This document shows, piece after piece, positions 2,448-9,553 of a stretch of DNA of 64,000 nt. The position numbers and the translations under genes were made by a program. Under the pieces are notes generated by a model. That model was not told the origin of the DNA and made no database searches. It saw only the letters and a list, made by a program, of their open reading frames with translations. Position 1 is the first letter of the stretch; each line of letters begins with the position of its first letter. The stretch lies in the sequence record MT150133.1; one strand, given 5' to 3'. This DNA comes from Enterobacteria phage vB_EcoM_IME540.

Positions 2448-2693
2448 ACAAAAGTCCTTTGTTGTTTTATACTATTTGCCTTTCGGCCTTAACCGATAGC
2501 GATTACCAAAAGCTAAAGCTCTACGGTTAGTATTATTATTTATAGCTTTTTAAGCTTACGACAATAAGAATAGAACACGTCGTTAAAATTATGCTCAACC
2601 CAATTCCTCTGTATAGGCGAGGTAATGGAAAGCATATAATGCGCTTTAATTAAATCCATCCCATTTTTATTAGGACACTCTTTATTATTAGCA

Positions 2694-2819
2694 TTATACG
2701 TCGCTGCTACAACCTTCTATCTCTCTTTTGTAAGCCACATCATCCATGATAGGCGAAAGAACAATATAAGAAATAGCCACAGCGAACGCTAGAATTAAAA
2801 TCTTTGAATTTAGGTCCAT
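2694..2819 (-). CDS. small hydrophobic peptide (~41 aa), speculative
   Basis: Hand translation: ATG 2817-2819 preceded by GAGGG; MDLNSKILILAFAVAISYIVLSPIMDD...; below ORF-track size cutoff. Confidence 0.25.
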   Translation of the reverse strand: MDLNSKILILAFAVAISYIVLSPIMDDVAYKREIEGCSSDV

Positions 2820-2826
2820 AGTACCC

Positions 2827-3399
2827 TCAACTCGTTATTTCTATCCAGTGCTTCCTGCACAATGACACGTAAGAATCGTTGCCACCTATAGAAACTTGGG
2901 CTCCGTCCTTAATTGCGATACCATCTTGGATACGAGCCGTCATAGTAGCTTTACGGCCGCAATGGCACACACCTTTGTACTCAACGAGTTTATCTGCCGT
3001 AGCGAGTAATTCAGCAGAGCCAGGAAACAGTTTACCCTGAAAATCAGTTCTTAGCCCATAACACATAACTGGAACATTATAATTGTCTACTATCTTCGCC
3101 AGTTGTTTTATCTGTGCAGGTTCTAAGAACTGTGCTTCATCCACAAATACACAGTGGATATCTTTTTGAGATTCAGCCCAACGATAGAACTCGTATAGGT
3201 CCATATCCGGAGTCACGGCATTAGCCTCTTGACTAATCCCTATACGAGACGAAATGCTATGGCTTGATTCTCTATTGTCTACCGCGGGCTTTAAAAGGAG
3301 TACGCCCATACCACGTTCTTTGTAGTTATGAGCTGCCGTTAGCAATGAAGCGGTTTTCCCGGAATTCATCGCCGCATAGTGAAACATCAAGCTTGCCAT
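2827..3399 (-). CDS. tk: thymidine kinase
   Basis: 190 aa; P-loop AAMNSGKTASLL, C-terminal CHCG...SLCRKHW zinc motif; close match to T4 Tk as recalled. Confidence 0.92.
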   Translation of the reverse strand: MASLMFHYAAMNSGKTASLLTAAHNYKERGMGVLLLKPAVDNRESSHSISSRIGISQEANAVTPDMDLYEFYRWAESQKDIHCVFVDEAQFLEPAQIKQLAKIVDNYNVPVMCYGLRTDFQGKLFPGSAELLATADKLVEYKGVCHCGRKATMTARIQDGIAIKDGAQVSIGGNDSYVSLCRKHWIEITS

Positions 3400-4124
3400 T
3401 TAAATACAACTCCTCTATAAGAGCAATTAGGATAACCTTTGCTTATAGCTATCTTTTTAAACATATATGCTGAAGGCTTATTGGATTCTTCCCATAAGAG
3501 TTTTAATTCATCGTAAAATTTCCAAGATTCGTTTCTTATAGGAGAAGGTTTTCCTGCCATAGCGCCCTTTTTACCGTACATGGGATTCTTTTTGCCCTTT
3601 TTGGCGTTACTCATATTTTCTATGGTTTCAGCGCTATGTTTAAATCCTTTTAATTTTTTAGAGGCTAATCCTATTTTAGCTTTATGCTCATCACTAAATC
3701 CTATTCTATTGGAATAATGGTTTAAACCTTTATTAGAAGTGGTGAATTTAGAAGCTTCTATTCTGGCTTTGCTCCATTTAACTCCTTTTCTAGACCTAGA
3801 CATTTTCTGTTTAGTTAAATTAGATAATTTGGTTCCTTTCTTTTTACCTCTTCCGCCATCAGCAAAATTTAAAGAATGCTTACCATATTTTAATTTAGCC
3901 TTTTCAACTAAAGGAATTTCGGCGGCATACGCCTCTTCTTCAGATTCGAAGAATTCTAATATACGAGTTTTATAAGGATGCTTTTTACAAATATTTTTAA
4001 CTACCGTACCACTTCCATAATACCCGTCTGAAAGATTATCAGTGGAGTGTTTACCTACATAGTAATAATTTGCCTTATGGGTTTTTATTACAGTCAAGTA
4101 ATTATAATGGAATTCCTTTGCCAT
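3387..4124 (-). CDS. GIY-YIG-family homing endonuclease-like protein (seg-like)
   Basis: N-terminal YLTVIK...YYYVGKHST...GYYGSG (GIY-YIG variant); basic region with repeated K/G-rich NPMYGKKG (NUMOD3-like) motifs. Confidence 0.65.
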   Translation of the reverse strand: MAKEFHYNYLTVIKTHKANYYYVGKHSTDNLSDGYYGSGTVVKNICKKHPYKTRILEFFESEEEAYAAEIPLVEKAKLKYGKHSLNFADGGRGKKKGTKLSNLTKQKMSRSRKGVKWSKARIEASKFTTSNKGLNHYSNRIGFSDEHKAKIGLASKKLKGFKHSAETIENMSNAKKGKKNPMYGKKGAMAGKPSPIRNESWKFYDELKLLWEESNKPSAYMFKKIAISKGYPNCSYRGVVFKWQA

Positions 4125-4133
4125 ATTACCTTC

Positions 4134-4340
4134 TTAAAGCGTATTCACATAAGCTATTAATTCGTTTTCTTTCTCATCAAATCGATTGACAAATTCTTCC
4201 TGATGTTCGGGAGATAGCGGGCCATATTCATCATAAAAAGAATTTGCTTCTGCATGCTCATCTAGAAGTTCATGGATAAGCTCAAACAATTTATCTTTCT
4301 GTTCTTTACTCAGACTCATAACCATTGTACCTTTAAGCAA
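4134..4340 (-). CDS. hypothetical small protein (68 aa)
   Basis: ORF track. Confidence 0.4.
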   Translation of the reverse strand: MLKGTMVMSLSKEQKDKLFELIHELLDEHAEANSFYDEYGPLSPEHQEEFVNRFDEKENELIAYVNTL

Positions 4341-4528
4341 TATTCTTCTACATGCTGCTTACGTTTATTTTTATCTATAAAAGTATATTCAACATATTCA
4401 CCGATATACCATTTATCGGTGTTGTGTTGACTTTTTATAGGGCATTTAGTTACTCGGGTTTCGGACCAGTGTCGAATAATTTCCGCTTTATTTTTAGGGT
4501 CAAACGGATGCGGGTAATGGGCTTTCAT
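4316..4528 (-). CDS. hypothetical small protein (70 aa)
   Basis: ORF track; overlaps neighbours, start uncertain. Confidence 0.3.
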   Translation of the reverse strand: MKAHYPHPFDPKNKAEIIRHWSETRVTKCPIKSQHNTDKWYIGEYVEYTFIDKNKRKQHVEEYCLKVQWL

Positions 4529-4967
4529 AATCTACCACCACTAAATTAATATCAGGAGTAAACAAATTAATCAATTGGTAAACCTTGTCCCAATCACCAC
4601 CAGCAATACCACAACCGATGCGAGGAATATAAATTCTTGGTTTAAACAAAAGACCTTTTGCTTGTTGATTTAATTCTATCATACAGTTTACTAAAGCACC
4701 GTAATCAAGATTAGGGCCTGGTTCGTATTGGGTGTATAAATTATAGCAAATTTGGCCCTTATTACCTGTGGCTTGAGTAAACGTGCCAAGTTTTTCCAAA
4801 TGGCCTAAATAAGTGGTTTTATCGATAGCGAGAATAGGCGGATAAGCCTTAGCCAATTGCCCAGCTACACCTGAACCCATTGTGTGGAAACAGTTACACC
4901 CGTGTGCAACATTATTACCTTGAAGAAATAGGGCGACAATATCGCCCTTAATATAATCAATAATCAT
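4500..4967 (-). CDS. macro-domain-like protein (putative ADP-ribose binding/hydrolase)
   Basis: 155 aa; motifs GDIVALF...N...GSGVAGQ and C-terminal IPRIGCGIAGGDW resemble macro-domain glycine-rich loops; assignment from motif recognition only. Confidence 0.45.
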   Translation of the reverse strand: MIIDYIKGDIVALFLQGNNVAHGCNCFHTMGSGVAGQLAKAYPPILAIDKTTYLGHLEKLGTFTQATGNKGQICYNLYTQYEPGPNLDYGALVNCMIELNQQAKGLLFKPRIYIPRIGCGIAGGDWDKVYQLINLFTPDINLVVVDYESPLPASV

Positions 4968-5320
4968 TTAGAGTTTAATCCTCGATTGTATGAATCAACG
5001 AGTCTGTCTACCATAGACGCGCACATTTCTTTGTACTTTTTATCAGATGGAATACATTCAGTAACGTTTAGACGTTGCTCGTATCTTTTAGAAAGAGTTT
5101 TCTCTTTCATTCGACGATGCTCTACGTCGTTCTGCCCATCTTTAAAAGCAGCCGTGATTTTTGAACTGAATTCGATAATGCATTCAGTATTACTCGGATG
5201 ACAATAATCTTTTGCTGTACGGGTAGCATACTCGACAATTGAATTATTACTATCATAAACTTGTGACGCTAATACTCCCGGAGCAATCAACATAAGCGCT
5301 ATAGTCATCTGCTTAATCAT
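4964..5320 (-). CDS. putative secreted/periplasmic Cys-containing protein (118 aa)
   Basis: N-terminal signal-peptide-like MIKQMTIALMLIAPGVLASQ; four Cys in mature part. Confidence 0.45.
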   Translation of the reverse strand: MIKQMTIALMLIAPGVLASQVYDSNNSIVEYATRTAKDYCHPSNTECIIEFSSKITAAFKDGQNDVEHRRMKEKTLSKRYEQRLNVTECIPSDKKYKEMCASMVDRLVDSYNRGLNSK

Positions 5321-5884
5321 TTAATATACCGCCTCAAACATCTTTTTAGATTTTAGATAATTGGCCTTTTCTAGAACTTCAGAAGCATATTTACTGCCTG
5401 CTTCGACGTTCCAGCCCGCATTATAAGAAGCAATCGCTTTTCTCAGGTCACCTTTGTGAACATCAATCCAATAAGACAGTTCAATGTAGGCCCAAGAGGC
5501 ACTGTTCTGTCGTTTTTGGACCATACGAATTATTTCTTTGTCTGACATCTTCCAACCTACCTGTTGAACACGACTTCTTAACGTAGGCAAGTAATTTTGG
5601 AACATGCCATAAGCATGGTGCTTATCTTTATTTAAACCCTGATTAATTCCGGCAGATGATTCCTGCCATAGTAATCCGGCCATAATATATCCTAATCCTT
5701 TTTGATTAGGGGTTTCTTTGAACTTTCCCGACTTTTGGTATTGTTCACCGAAAGCATACGCATAATGTAAATTATCGAGCTGGGTTTCTGTAAATACGGG
5801 TTCTGCTGCACTTACAGAAAACGAACCACACATAATAGCCGCTATTAAAGAATATTTAAGTTTTTTTAGAAAAATCATAATCAA
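5321..5884 (-). CDS. putative secreted lytic transglycosylase (SLT-domain-like)
   Basis: Signal-peptide-like N-terminus; motifs LLWQESS ... AYGMFQ ... ASYNAGW match the E-S / GLMQ / AYNxG pattern of SLT domains. Confidence 0.5.
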   Translation of the reverse strand: MIMIFLKKLKYSLIAAIMCGSFSVSAAEPVFTETQLDNLHYAYAFGEQYQKSGKFKETPNQKGLGYIMAGLLWQESSAGINQGLNKDKHHAYGMFQNYLPTLRSRVQQVGWKMSDKEIIRMVQKRQNSASWAYIELSYWIDVHKGDLRKAIASYNAGWNVEAGSKYASEVLEKANYLKSKKMFEAVY

Positions 5885-6590
5885 TAAGTCCTCGGTAATC
5901 TACATTAGGGAAGCCGTTCTTAATTGCGATTTTACTAAATCTTCCACACTTGAGCTTATTATTATCTACCCATAATTTATATAATTGTGAATACATCGGT
6001 TCATGCCATATAGGGGATTTACGCAAAGAGGCTTTTTTCCTTTCTATAGTTTCTTTAGAATTTTGTATGGCTTTAAATTTTTGTCTATTTTCAGGATTTT
6101 CAAAATACTTAACCCGTTTTTCAGACATTTTAGCTTTTACTTTTGGCGAATTTAAAATTTCTTTGAGCCGTTCTTTAGAGCCTTCCTTTTCAAAATACTT
6201 TATTAAAGCCATTGAATGAGCAGCCCTATTTTCCTTTTTAGAGAAAAATAAAATTTTATTAATAGATTGCAATTTTGAAAATGATTCTTTAGCCAACTTA
6301 TAATTTTCAGAATCTACAAAATAAGACCTTTGTTTTGAATTTGAAGTAGAGCTCATATTTAACCAGGCAAAATTCAACCCATAGTGGTTTGGATTAGCTT
6401 TGGCTAGATACATATGGGCCAAATAATGTTCATCAGCATAAAGCTCAACTAAATTGTCTTGAGTGTCAGGACCACCAACACAACTCGGAATTATATGATG
6501 CTTTTCTGTATAGGCGTCATTAGGTGTATCCCTAGATAAGGCCGCATTTATTATTTTATAGTAGTCATATGGATATTTTATAGTTTCCAT
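5856..6590 (-). CDS. HNH-family homing endonuclease-like protein (mob-like)
   Basis: N-terminal EKHHIIPSCVGGPDTQDNLVELYADEH (HNH motif); basic C-terminal region; C-terminal KIAIKNGFPNVDYRG module shared with the ORF at 3387-4124. Confidence 0.65.
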   Translation of the reverse strand: METIKYPYDYYKIINAALSRDTPNDAYTEKHHIIPSCVGGPDTQDNLVELYADEHYLAHMYLAKANPNHYGLNFAWLNMSSTSNSKQRSYFVDSENYKLAKESFSKLQSINKILFFSKKENRAAHSMALIKYFEKEGSKERLKEILNSPKVKAKMSEKRVKYFENPENRQKFKAIQNSKETIERKKASLRKSPIWHEPMYSQLYKLWVDNNKLKCGRFSKIAIKNGFPNVDYRGLIDYDFSKKT

Positions 6591-6597
6591 ACTGTCC

Positions 6598-7056
6598 TCA
6601 CAAGTAAATTACTTTCGTGCTGGTTTTACCTTCTAAACGTTTAGAGTTAACAAATGCCATACGACATTTAAGGGAATATCCTTTATCAGGATGTTTACGG
6701 TCTACTGTCATACCTAGCCATAAGGTTTTATCGGTAATTTCGAGACGCAATGGCCGATACACTTTACCAGGGACAATTTCGGATTCTACATCAGGCAGAG
6801 GTTCCTGGATTAAGAATTCATGGATTTCTTTAACATGGTTATGGAGTTGCTTGAATAAAGCAAAAACGTATTTTTCGTCGATTTCACGTTGGATAGCACG
6901 GTCCAACAAGTGGTTAGAGTACTTAATAAAGAAGGCTGGGACTCCGCTCTTAATGGCGGCTTTTTTGATGGACGTATTCAGTTCACGGAATTCGGTTTCG
7001 AACTGACGACGTAATTTATTGCGGCGGATGAATACTTCTGAATTAATTTCTGACAT
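6598..7056 (-). CDS. regB: RegB-like endoribonuclease
   Basis: 152 aa; EVFIRRNKLRR...HLLDRAIQREIDE...LEITD..LWLG resemble T4 RegB as recalled; position between tk and denV as in T4. Confidence 0.6.
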   Translation of the reverse strand: MSEINSEVFIRRNKLRRQFETEFRELNTSIKKAAIKSGVPAFFIKYSNHLLDRAIQREIDEKYVFALFKQLHNHVKEIHEFLIQEPLPDVESEIVPGKVYRPLRLEITDKTLWLGMTVDRKHPDKGYSLKCRMAFVNSKRLEGKTSTKVIYL

Positions 7057-7073
7057 TTTGTAATCTCCTGTAG

Positions 7074-7113
7074 TTGATAGGTCTATAGTACCACGTCTAC
7101 AGGAGATGTAAAC
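7074..7113 (-). promoter_or_regulatory. early promoter cassette (PeSL-like) copy 2, upstream of regB
   Basis: Same core; flanked by inverted repeat CTCCTGTAG / CTACAGGAG. Confidence 0.6.
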
Positions 7114-7117
7114 TGCT

Positions 7118-7327
7118 TTATTCTTGGAATGGGGTAAGTTTTCCAGCAGCTGAACAAATTTCTACCAGTACAGGGTAAAACTCTTTCACTTGTTCAAGGC
7201 GTTGGGCTGCATACTGTACTTCACCTTCTTCGAGACAAGCCATTTGGTCGTCAAGCAAGTATTTGTGGTAGCCAGTACAGGCTTCACCGATGATACGCTG
7301 GAAATCTTGTAAACTTTCAATTTTCAT
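7118..7327 (-). CDS. hypothetical small protein (start taken at ATG overlapping upstream stop, ATGA)
   Basis: ORF track 7118-7369; internal ATG at 7327 gives translational coupling with upstream ORF. Confidence 0.4.
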   Translation of the reverse strand: MKIESLQDFQRIIGEACTGYHKYLLDDQMACLEEGEVQYAAQRLEQVKEFYPVLVEICSAAGKLTPFQE

Positions 7328-7605
7328 CAGTATTTTTCCTCGGGTTGGAAAACGGAACGACACGCCCACATACTTGCTTCTTTCAGACGGTCAATTGCAT
7401 TACGAATCTGGGTGATGCGTTCATGAGCCTGGTCTAGTTCTTGTTCAGAAACCTCTTCGGTATCTAAGTTCATATAATGAGTAACATGTTCTTCTTCCAG
7501 AGCTTTAAACATTAACCCAAGACGAACTTCAGCATCTTTGATAGCGTTTACTTTACCGATTTTATCGTCGGTATGCGGCTTATAACCCTTGATATCTTCA
7601 ATCAT
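7327..7605 (-). CDS. hypothetical small protein (92 aa)
   Basis: ORF track; position in regB-denV interval. Confidence 0.45.
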   Translation of the reverse strand: MIEDIKGYKPHTDDKIGKVNAIKDAEVRLGLMFKALEEEHVTHYMNLDTEEVSEQELDQAHERITQIRNAIDRLKEASMWACRSVFQPEEKY

Positions 7606-7820
7606 TTCACTTCCTCGCCAGTTGCGATATCATATTCTACCAAACGAAGGCCTTCAGTCCAACCTTGCACGGAGATATAGGTAGTCGGGTAAATCATTTC
7701 TTTACCATTCCACCGACCGCCATCCCAGACTTCCAGAAAGTCTTGTTCACCTGGTCCATTAAGCCATTCAACAAATCTTTTCAGAGCTTCTTCAGAACCT
7801 TCAATTGTCAATTTAGACAT
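7602..7820 (-). CDS. hypothetical small protein (72 aa)
   Basis: ORF track; 4-nt overlap with neighbour. Confidence 0.45.
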   Translation of the reverse strand: MSKLTIEGSEEALKRFVEWLNGPGEQDFLEVWDGGRWNGKEMIYPTTYISVQGWTEGLRLVEYDIATGEEVK

Positions 7821-8109
7821 ATTTTTTCCAATCAGAAATCATATGAATCTCTTGGTCATAAGTCAAGAGACTACGAGCAATAATACCCTTACAAGGCCCT
7901 GAGATGAACTCGAGAGTGAAGTAAGGAACCTGTTTCATTAATCGGATACTAGGAGCATGACATCTAAAACGAGAGCCCTTAAAGGGCCCTGTCATGAATA
8001 CATATTCCAATGGGTAGAAATAAGCATATTCGAAATTTGCAGTAAGGTCCTCTCTTCGAACCTTACGTGAGAAATAACAGAACTCAAAAAGTTCTTCATC
8101 AGTCATCAT
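7813..8109 (-). CDS. hypothetical protein (start at internal ATG overlapping upstream stop)
   Basis: ORF track 7813-8157; ATG ATG at 8109/8106 coupled to stop of 8106-8633. Confidence 0.4.
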   Translation of the reverse strand: MMTDEELFEFCYFSRKVRREDLTANFEYAYFYPLEYVFMTGPFKGSRFRCHAPSIRLMKQVPYFTLEFISGPCKGIIARSLLTYDQEIHMISDWKKYV

Positions 8110-8633
8110 TGCATTCCTATCACAAAGAACAGAGGCAAAGGCTTGTCGCCTTGGCACATAAATTTATTAATCATTACCTGGTAAGCTTCATAGAACTTAT
8201 CCATCGCTGGAAGGCGCATTGGCTCTTCGATAATAATCAATAATCGAGTAACAGATAGTCCACGATACTTATGGAAATTGTCTTCATCAAGGAAACTGCG
8301 CACAGTATCATAGACAACAAAACCAGGACCTTCGACTTGGAGATGTGGGTGTGCCTTAGAAACCTGTTTTATTACATTACAAATTTCTCGCGAGCGATGC
8401 GAAGAACTCGACATAACAATCACATCATTACCCTTGGAAACCCAATCAGCGGCGAACTGAGCAAGGGCACTTGTTTTACCTGTTTGGCGTCCGCCATCAA
8501 GTCGAAGAGTACCAAACTCTTGCATTCTTGAAGCAGGTTCATACCATGTGTATTGGTCTGAGTCTAAACGTTCAATGGCGCGTTCAGCGAAGGCGTGCAT
8601 TAAGGTTAGATAAATGGGAGTTAAAAATTTCAT
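8106..8633 (-). CDS. P-loop NTPase-like protein
   Basis: 175 aa; Walker A GGRQTGKTS and Walker-B-like LLIIIEEP. Confidence 0.5.
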   Translation of the reverse strand: MKFLTPIYLTLMHAFAERAIERLDSDQYTWYEPASRMQEFGTLRLDGGRQTGKTSALAQFAADWVSKGNDVIVMSSSSHRSREICNVIKQVSKAHPHLQVEGPGFVVYDTVRSFLDEDNFHKYRGLSVTRLLIIIEEPMRLPAMDKFYEAYQVMINKFMCQGDKPLPLFFVIGMQ

Positions 8634-8793
8634 AGTAGTCTCTTAGTGGTGGGGCCATTCCTTGGCACATAATTCGTCCATGTATCCGTATGTAAACCCT
8701 TTACCGCACTTGGGCTCGACCTTATTACAGGTAGGGAAAGGTCCATCACTCAGAGGACGCGACGTTCATGAGGAGAGGGCCGGCTTGCCTTTA

Positions 8794-9093
8794 TTAGAAA
8801 GAACCAGAACCTCTAATTGTGTTCTGGCGACCTTTATTTTCTAATTCGGAGTGGTCGATTTCATATGCTTGTGCTACGCCAAAGGCCTTTTTAACTTTAG
8901 CTAAAGAACCTTTAGATGTAACAATATTAAAAGTATTACCTTTGGTAAAATCAACAAAATCGACTTGTACGCCCTGTTTACCGAGGCTTGCTACAATAGC
9001 ATCAACATATTCTTGGTCTAAATTGCCTTGAACTCCAATTTGAAATGCTTTAGGAGCTTTGGCTTCTGTGATAAATTCTTGATAAGTTTTCAT
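8794..9093 (-). CDS. internal-protein-like (capsid-targeted) protein, ipII position
   Basis: N-terminus MKTYQEFITEAK matches the T4 IP capsid-targeting sequence MKTYQEFIAE; adjacent to denV as ipII is in T4. Confidence 0.6.
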   Translation of the reverse strand: MKTYQEFITEAKAPKAFQIGVQGNLDQEYVDAIVASLGKQGVQVDFVDFTKGNTFNIVTSKGSLAKVKKAFGVAQAYEIDHSELENKGRQNTIRGSGSF

Positions 9094-9136
9094 TGTTATT
9101 CCTTAAGTTGATAGAAGTATTCTATCACGGATTTAA

Positions 9137-9553
9137 TTAAGCGTAAATAGCCTTGCCATAATGTTTGTACCAGGTAGGACGCTGTGCAATTTTTTCATCC
9201 AAACGGGTCTGAGATATAGCAATAGAAGCTTCGTGTGGAGTATAGTCACCACGGAATTCCTGAGGAATGCCACTAATGTCCTGGACAGTAGTATCCTTGA
9301 TATTAAAACCACGTTTTAAACATTCGGCTATAAGCTCAATTTGTCGCTTACGTAAAAATTCAAGCTTATCGTAAAAGAATGTAACATGGCCTGTGCCAAG
9401 GATAAAAGTAGGACTGATTTTGAAATCACGGACACGTTTACCATTAGCAACATGCTTACGAACTGCACCGAAAACACGTGGTAATTCACGATATTCAGCC
9501 ATTAAGTGTTGGTCGGCCAATTCAGATACTAAGGTAAGGTTGATACGAGTCAT
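9137..9553 (-). CDS. denV: endonuclease V (pyrimidine dimer DNA glycosylase)
   Basis: 138 aa, near-identical to T4 DenV as recalled ([34 protein letters not shown]...). Confidence 0.93.

Follow-up and report, generated by a model that had tools for sequence, protein, structure and literature searches.

A Tk.4 (AdfM)-type stand-alone macrodomain protein in the tk-vs-regB cluster of a Dhakavirus-like T-even phage, with probable glutamine-dependent action on DarT2-modified DNA

The similarity of tk.4 orthologues to A1pp/macro domains was noted in 2006 (PMC1524935), and the T4 gene was connected with a function in the HIDEN-SEQ preprint of November 2025, in which tk.4 alone among the T4 genes was significantly depleted when the host expressed DarTG2, T4 with a clean tk.4 knockout was sensitised to DarTG2, and the gene was named adfM, for anti-DarT factor Macrodomain (bioRxiv 10.1101/2025.11.20.689424). 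Enzymatic removal of ADP-ribose from DNA by AdfM was inferred by the authors of the preprint, who wrote that it 'seems likely' (bioRxiv 10.1101/2025.11.20.689424). Gp104 of phage PhiKZ, which is also named AdfM, is another stand-alone phage macrodomain that counters DarTG2 (Cell Rep 2026, PMC13309987); it enters the phage nucleus by import, strips DarT2-installed ADP-ribose off DNA in vitro and loses part of its activity on the substitution N23A of a conserved active-site Asn (PMC13309987). For the cellular macrodomain SCO6735, it was reported that thymidine-linked ADP-ribose on DNA is removed faster than by DarG or TARG1, that DarT toxicity is rescued, that Q85 is structurally equivalent to K80 of DarG and K84 of TARG1 and that the Q85A and Q85E variants are inactive, with H24 and N27 also probed by mutagenesis; in the proposed mechanism an activated water takes the place of a Lys nucleophile, and an extended (+5 aa) 'mobile loop' was described as characteristic of the SCO6735/BT1257 subclass (PMC9411070).

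The window, by which we mean the whole 64,000-nucleotide stretch of Enterobacteria phage vB_EcoM_IME540 (MT150133.1) that was analysed, carries at 4500..4967 on the minus strand an ATG-initiated open reading frame of 155 aa. Its product aligns with T4 Tk.4 over 155/155 aa with 53% identity and 72% positives (E 8e-62), and the gene order regB-vs.1-vs-tk.4-tk.3-tk.2-tk is identical in T4, Bp7 and WG01, whose records name the gene tk.4. This full-length similarity together with the shared gene order identifies the window gene as the tk.4 (adfM) orthologue, encoding a stand-alone macrodomain protein. The phage itself is, judged from its sequence, a Dhakavirus-like T-even phage, and nucleotide searches returned approximately 96% identity of the window to PSD2002, C6, WG01 and Bp7. 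Immediately upstream of tk.4 lies vs, the valyl-tRNA synthetase modifier gene (4964..5320, minus strand; PHROG 1256, E 4e-34), followed by the SLT-like vs.1 (5321..5884) and regB (6598..7056), with denV and the e lysozyme gene farther along beyond regB; immediately downstream lies tk.3 (4316..4528, minus strand; Pfam DUF7202, E 7e-37), then tk.2 (DUF7438) and the thymidine kinase gene tk (2827..3399). Among 79 sampled viral loci of the tk.4 family, 37 have this vs/tk.3 context, which we refer to as the T4 context.

The tk.2-tk.3-tk.4-vs-vs.1 block is flanked on both sides by homing-endonuclease-like ORFs. One of them, a NUMOD3 homing-endonuclease-like ORF of 245 aa whose N-terminus is GIY-YIG-like by eye, lies at 3387..4124 (minus strand) between tk and tk.2, so that tk.2 is found between this ORF and tk.3, and the other, a weak-HNH endonuclease-like ORF of 244 aa, lies at 5856..6590 (minus strand) between vs.1 and regB. 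Neither is present in Bp7 or WG01, which are collinear apart from this and in which tk adjoins tk.2 and vs.1 adjoins regB, and Salmonella phage ABTNLS3 has a NUMOD3 gene at the same site.

The reading frame is tightly embedded among its neighbours. The tk.4 ATG shares the ATGA at 4964..4967 with the TGA stop of the upstream vs, an arrangement which suggests translational coupling, and a Shine-Dalgarno sequence, GAGGA at 4979..4983 (minus strand), was read 11 nt upstream of the ATG within the 3' end of vs. At its own 3' end the gene overlaps the start of tk.3 by 29 nt, and given these tight overlaps on both sides the ORF is part of a packed co-directional gene string. The pN/pS of tk.4 was 0.08 to 0.20 when the window was compared with Bp7 and WG01, its closest relatives, with changes overwhelmingly synonymous; the gene is under purifying selection and a chance ORF is excluded. 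Relatives of the window gene were found by tblastn in 2,732 phage records, and 356 protein clusters matched its product at E<=1e-3, while no second copy or paralogue was found within the window. The idea that tk.4 is a recent foreign insertion was ruled out by its local-like GC content (0.385, surroundings 0.396) and by synteny kept across Tevenvirinae. In terms of expression signals, we take the tk-vs-regB cluster to be prereplicative from what is known of T4, and a sigma-70 promoter scan of 2500-9200 gave 23 sites in comparison to 20.8 +/- 5.0 in shuffles, a difference which carries no information. At 4930..4948 (minus strand), within codons 7-13 of tk.4, there is a GC-rich hairpin of 8 bp with a T-rich tail after it (AGGGCGATATTGTCGCCCT ATTTCTT); the terminator scan overall gave 8 sites in comparison to 4.4 +/- 2.0 in shuffles, which is a modest excess, and this hairpin may be due to chance or may be a translational or RNA-stability element.

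The earlier note on this DNA had guessed at a macro fold for the 155-aa ORF from two motifs, GSGVAGQ and IGCGIAGG, which were indeed located at residues 31-37 and 117-124, and it had proposed a profile search as a check. That search matched residues 22-132 of the protein to positions 2-117 of the 118 in the Pfam Macro model (PF01661) with 32.6 bits, where the gathering score is 22, and the guess was further borne out by matches to solved macrodomains. A single-sequence search of solved structures with the window Tk.4 returned BT1257, SCO6735, Poa1p, DarG and TARG1, and a profile built from 72 family sequences returned the same proteins at E values of 1e-19 for BT1257, 1.5e-17 for TARG1, 1e-16 for SCO6735, 2e-14 for Poa1p and 6e-11 for DarG. 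The three-layer alpha/beta/alpha macro fold and the two glycine-rich loops which bind ADP-ribose and diphosphate were both recognised in the window protein, which is thus, by its profile matches, a genuine macrodomain and belongs to the ALC1-like (TARG1/DarG/SCO6735) class.

The residues expected to form the active site were located by aligning the distant reference proteins to the family HMM with hmmalign, since in a MAFFT alignment the central strand was misplaced for BT1257 and SCO6735. A motif H22-G-C-N25-C (4890..4904, minus strand) ends strand beta-2, its H22 and N25 corresponding to H24 and N27 of SCO6735, and both residues were present in 118 of 120 homologues, the remaining two having gaps; N23 of PhiKZ AdfM would be the counterpart of N25. 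The first glycine-rich loop, GSGVAGQ (4857..4877, minus strand), is the predicted GxG ADP-ribose-binding loop of macrodomains and was aligned to MGAGIA of TARG1 and WGKGF of BT1257/SCO6735, with G33 and A35 present in 120/120 homologues. The second, IGCGIAGG (4596..4619, minus strand), is the predicted diphosphate-binding loop and was aligned to RIGCGLAGG of BT1257/SCO6735 and RIGCGLDRL of TARG1; G118 and G120 do not vary within the family, and A122 falls at the position of Asp125 in TARG1. Between the two loops, profile-anchored alignments placed the strand N76-L-Y-T-Q80 (4728..4742, minus strand) such that Q80, encoded by CAA at 4728..4730 (minus strand), was aligned to the catalytic Lys84 of TARG1, Lys80 of DarG, Gln85 of SCO6735 and the Gln of BT1257, and Q80 was kept in 119 of the 120 homologues with a gap as the sole exception. 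Our residue count for SCO6735 reproduced the published numbering (H24, V25, N27, K34, Q85 and K89; PMC9411070), so Q80 can be equated with SCO6735 Q85. The equivalence of these two residues, along with the near-invariant H22, N25 and glycine residues, makes a Gln-dependent, SCO6735-like chemistry most likely in preference to a DarG-like one.

A Gln was also observed at the position of DarG K80, TARG1 K84 and SCO6735 Q85 in the macrodomain of ALC1/CHD1L (…IVAQHRD…; PDB 7ENN/7EPU/7OTQ), which is non-catalytic. As a reader and a fast hydrolase share this residue, Gln alone is no predictor of hydrolase activity. This bears on the question of whether protection from DarTG2 could come mainly from binding and inhibiting DarT2, or from shielding ADP-ribosylated DNA, with the adduct left unhydrolysed, which we regard as quite unlikely. 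The window protein is without the catalytic Lys and has in common with the ALC1 reader a Gln in its place, and inhibition of DarT in vitro persists in the dead variants SCO6735 Q85A, DarG K80A and TARG1 K84A, being strongest for SCO6735 (PMC9411070). Against this, SCO6735, of the Gln type, hydrolyses fast and depends on its Gln (PMC9411070), and the near-invariance of Q80, H22 and N25 argues for catalysis, since a binding surface that had to keep pace with diverse DarT2 toxins would be less expected to stay so constant. Moreover, at only 155 aa the protein has no counterpart of the C-terminal DarT-binding domain of DarG, and DNA which has already been modified would not be repaired by binding alone.

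[quoted passage not shown] In this case the ADP-ribosyl marks or RNAylated host proteins left by Alt, ModA and ModB would be erased, timing or limiting the takeover of the host. The location of tk.4 in a prereplicative region agrees with such a role, protein-linked ADP-ribose is a possible substrate of TARG1-class macrodomains, and auto-modified PARP1 is acted upon to some extent by SCO6735 (PMC9411070). No ADP-ribosyltransferase gene, however, was found adjacent to tk.4 or elsewhere in the window, and the family is spread over many phages, including Pseudomonas PaP1-like phages, Felixounavirus, Campylobacter phages and others. The residue modified by Alt and the Mod enzymes is arginine, and to our knowledge no macrodomain cleaves arginine-linked ADP-ribose. 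Furthermore, no defect has been reported for the T4 tk.4 knockout unless DarTG2 is present. With the linkage, the gene content of the window and the breadth of the family all speaking against it, the alternative went unsupported, and we consider it very improbable.

Near-identical proteins (98%) are already held by public databases, with inconsistent labels: 'phosphatase' (derived from RefSeq/PHROG), 'hypothetical protein', 'macro domain protein' or 'O-acetyl-ADP-ribose deacetylase (regulator of RNase III)'. The reported anti-DarTG2 role is not reflected in any of them. The window tk.4 product matches PHROG 335 ('phosphatase') with E 3e-67, and T4 Tk.4 is also in PHROG 335. Such phosphatase and deacetylase labels are in line with a further possibility, that the substrates are ADP-ribose-1''-phosphate, O-acetyl-ADP-ribose, or derivatives arising from immune signals or toxins, acted upon for clean-up or NAD+ recycling, and not DNA adducts. 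Iyer et al. 2022 made the case that low-molecular-weight ADP-ribose derivatives are what most phage macrodomain activity is directed at, and in structure Poa1p is a close neighbour of the window protein. The labels, however, are inherited domain names with no assays behind them. In addition, weak in vitro ADP-ribose-1''-phosphate phosphatase activity is common among macrodomains and has no physiological meaning, and the sole conditional phenotype reported in T4 is against DarTG2, a DNA-modifying system.

Homologues in other phages provide a further hint at other substrates, as some are found within cassettes resembling those for NAD reconstitution. Among 42 viral loci outside the T4 context, 5 have Prs-like and nicotinamide/nicotinate phosphoribosyltransferase-like (NamPT/Namat-like) genes directly beside the Tk.4-type gene. 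NARP-like neighbours of this kind were recorded in Acinetobacter phage Aci01-1 (locus L004, 404..3974), in Vibrio phage Cilsick (locus L005, 2632..5638), at 4281..7170 of locus L080, at 5001..6965 of locus L083, and in loci L062, L063 and L040. The NARP-linked homologues have the same H, N, Q and Gly-loop residues, and RNA ligase genes are often near these loci. NARP1 rebuilds NAD+ from free ADP-ribose according to its published description, and the Prs-like and NamPT-like neighbours fit, as far as gene content goes, a NARP1/NARP2-like NAD+ reconstitution cassette. The linkage may be a functional coupling, in which the released ADP-ribose is converted to NAD+, or the adjacency to NAD genes may reflect only anti-defence islands. 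NAD-salvage neighbours were seen in 0 of the 37 T4-context loci, nor were they seen in the window, and overall we consider it unlikely that small molecules are the substrates of the window protein in place of DNA adducts.

We therefore prefer, with good but not complete confidence, to regard the window gene as a T4 Tk.4 (AdfM) orthologue whose product is a stand-alone macrodomain that hydrolyses DarT2-type thymidine-ADP-ribose on phage DNA in the manner of SCO6735. In the proposed sequence of events, the host DarT2 toxin would ADP-ribosylate thymidines in single-stranded phage DNA and thereby block replication, and Tk.4 would be made from the prereplicative tk-vs-regB cluster. The ADP-ribose moiety would be held between the glycine-rich loops GSGVAGQ and IGCGIAGG, and the N-glycosidic bond between thymine and ribose would be hydrolysed to give unmodified DNA and free ADP-ribose, with the essential Gln positioning the substrate and an activated water as in SCO6735, and with no catalytic Lys of the DarG/TARG1 kind. 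Tk.4 would thus be in effect an orphan antitoxin. That the window protein itself hydrolyses thymidine-linked ADP-ribose on DNA is what we infer from these comparisons. The suggestion in the earlier note that a phage macrodomain could reverse DNA ADP-ribosylation of the DarT type is supported by the published genetics on the T4 orthologue, but with the function assigned in 2025 it is not new. The finding as a whole was already known, because 98% identical proteins are public, the macro annotation dates from 2006 and the function from 2025.

A broader idea can be put forward with considerable doubt, namely that the Tk.4 family is a distinct lineage of Gln-dependent thymidine-ADP-ribose glycohydrolases which came from SCO6735/BT1257-like cellular enzymes with loss of the mobile loop, and not from a captured DarG, and which in some phages is also wired into NARP1-like cassettes that recycle the released ADP-ribose, or a related small-molecule substrate, to NAD+. 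If this is true, NARP1-wired Tk.4 proteins would couple counter-defence against DarT with counter-defence against NAD depletion. The current understanding is not overturned by the present analysis, and the residual interest is modest, lying in the Gln-type mechanism and in the NARP-linked homologues. What the analysis does is to carry the AdfM assignment beyond T4, into the Dhakavirus lineage and thousands of further phage genomes. A conserved T-even gene listed as a 'hypothetical protein/phosphatase' is most likely a counter-defence enzyme. The label 'macrodomain ADP-ribosylglycohydrolase, AdfM-like' would be better for it, as 'phosphatase' is misleading, and the assignment aids host-range prediction for therapeutic T4-like phages on strains which carry DarTG2.

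In comparison with T4 Tk.4, the window protein has the same length of 155 aa, the same slot between vs and tk.3, the same H22, N25 and Q80 and both Gly loops, and DarG is the sole PADLOC model matched by each. The two differ in the diphosphate loop, which is IGAGIGKGNW in T4 Tk.4 and IGCGIAGGDW, the family consensus, in the window protein, and in their origin, T4 being a Tequatrovirus and the window phage Dhakavirus-like. It is thus the characterised T4 allele that is atypical, departing from the consensus loop of the family, and with 53% identity and a differing diphosphate loop, equal specificity of the two proteins is an assumption. The loop of the window protein is also nearer to that of BT1257/SCO6735 (RIGCGLAGGxW) than the loop of T4 Tk.4 is (3001..3468 in the T4 locus).

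Among the cellular proteins, SCO6735 of Streptomyces coelicolor (PDB 5E3B) and BT1257 of Bacteroides (PDB 2FG1/2AFC) form the Gln-type ALC1-like subclass and have approximately 24-26% identity to the window protein, with which they have in common the Gln at the position of DarG K80 and TARG1 K84. They are, however, cellular and not phage-borne, and after this Gln they have a 'mobile loop' which is longer by 5-6 residues and which the Tk.4 family does not have, its loop length being as in TARG1 and DarG; K34 and K89 of SCO6735, which have been linked to DNA binding, correspond to S32 and G84 in the window protein. A straightforward placement of the Tk.4 family in the SCO6735/BT1257 subclass was rejected on the missing mobile loop and these two replacements. 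The catalytic dyad K84/D125 of human TARG1/OARD1 is replaced by Q80/A122 in the window protein. Yeast Poa1p, whose role as an ADP-ribose-1''-phosphate phosphatase has no known phage context, aligns in sequence with Tk.4 only over the N-terminal half.

The antitoxin DarG (DarG2; PDB 5M3I, 5M31/5M3E and 7OMU) differs from the window protein in its catalytic Lys80 (Taq DarG), where the window protein has Q80, and in its C-terminal DarT-binding domain, the DarG models being approximately 330-340 aa long in comparison to 155 aa for the macro-only window protein. The DarG equivalog NF048014 was the best NCBIfam match but scored 20.3 bits in comparison to a cut-off of 250 bits, over model positions 3-138 of 338, and the one PADLOC match, to DarG, was weak at 23.8 bits and confined to the macro part (positions 3-142 of 329). 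No darT was found next to the window tk.4, the neighbours of which are vs and tk.3. A 'stolen DarG antitoxin' was rejected, as the protein falls far below the equivalog cut-off and has neither the catalytic Lys nor the C-terminal domain.

Turning to other phage factors directed against DarT, PhiKZ gp104 is similar to the window protein in being a stand-alone macrodomain, but the two have only 19% identity (BLASTP E 0.001). Its …PTKDNW resembles by eye the Lys of the DarG/TARG1 type, although at 19% identity the alignment is ambiguous and does not decide whether this Lys falls at the position of Q80. PhiKZ gp104 and Tk.4 are probably independent acquisitions. AdfA and AdfB are DarT counter-defences too, but they are small, non-enzymatic, putative binders of DarT. 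AdfN (T4 gp30.3) has the unrelated NADAR fold and acts on the guanine-ADP-ribose produced by DarT1, not on the products of DarT2, and it is at the same time an orphan antitoxin-like glycohydrolase countering DarT, which is the kind of role proposed here for Tk.4.
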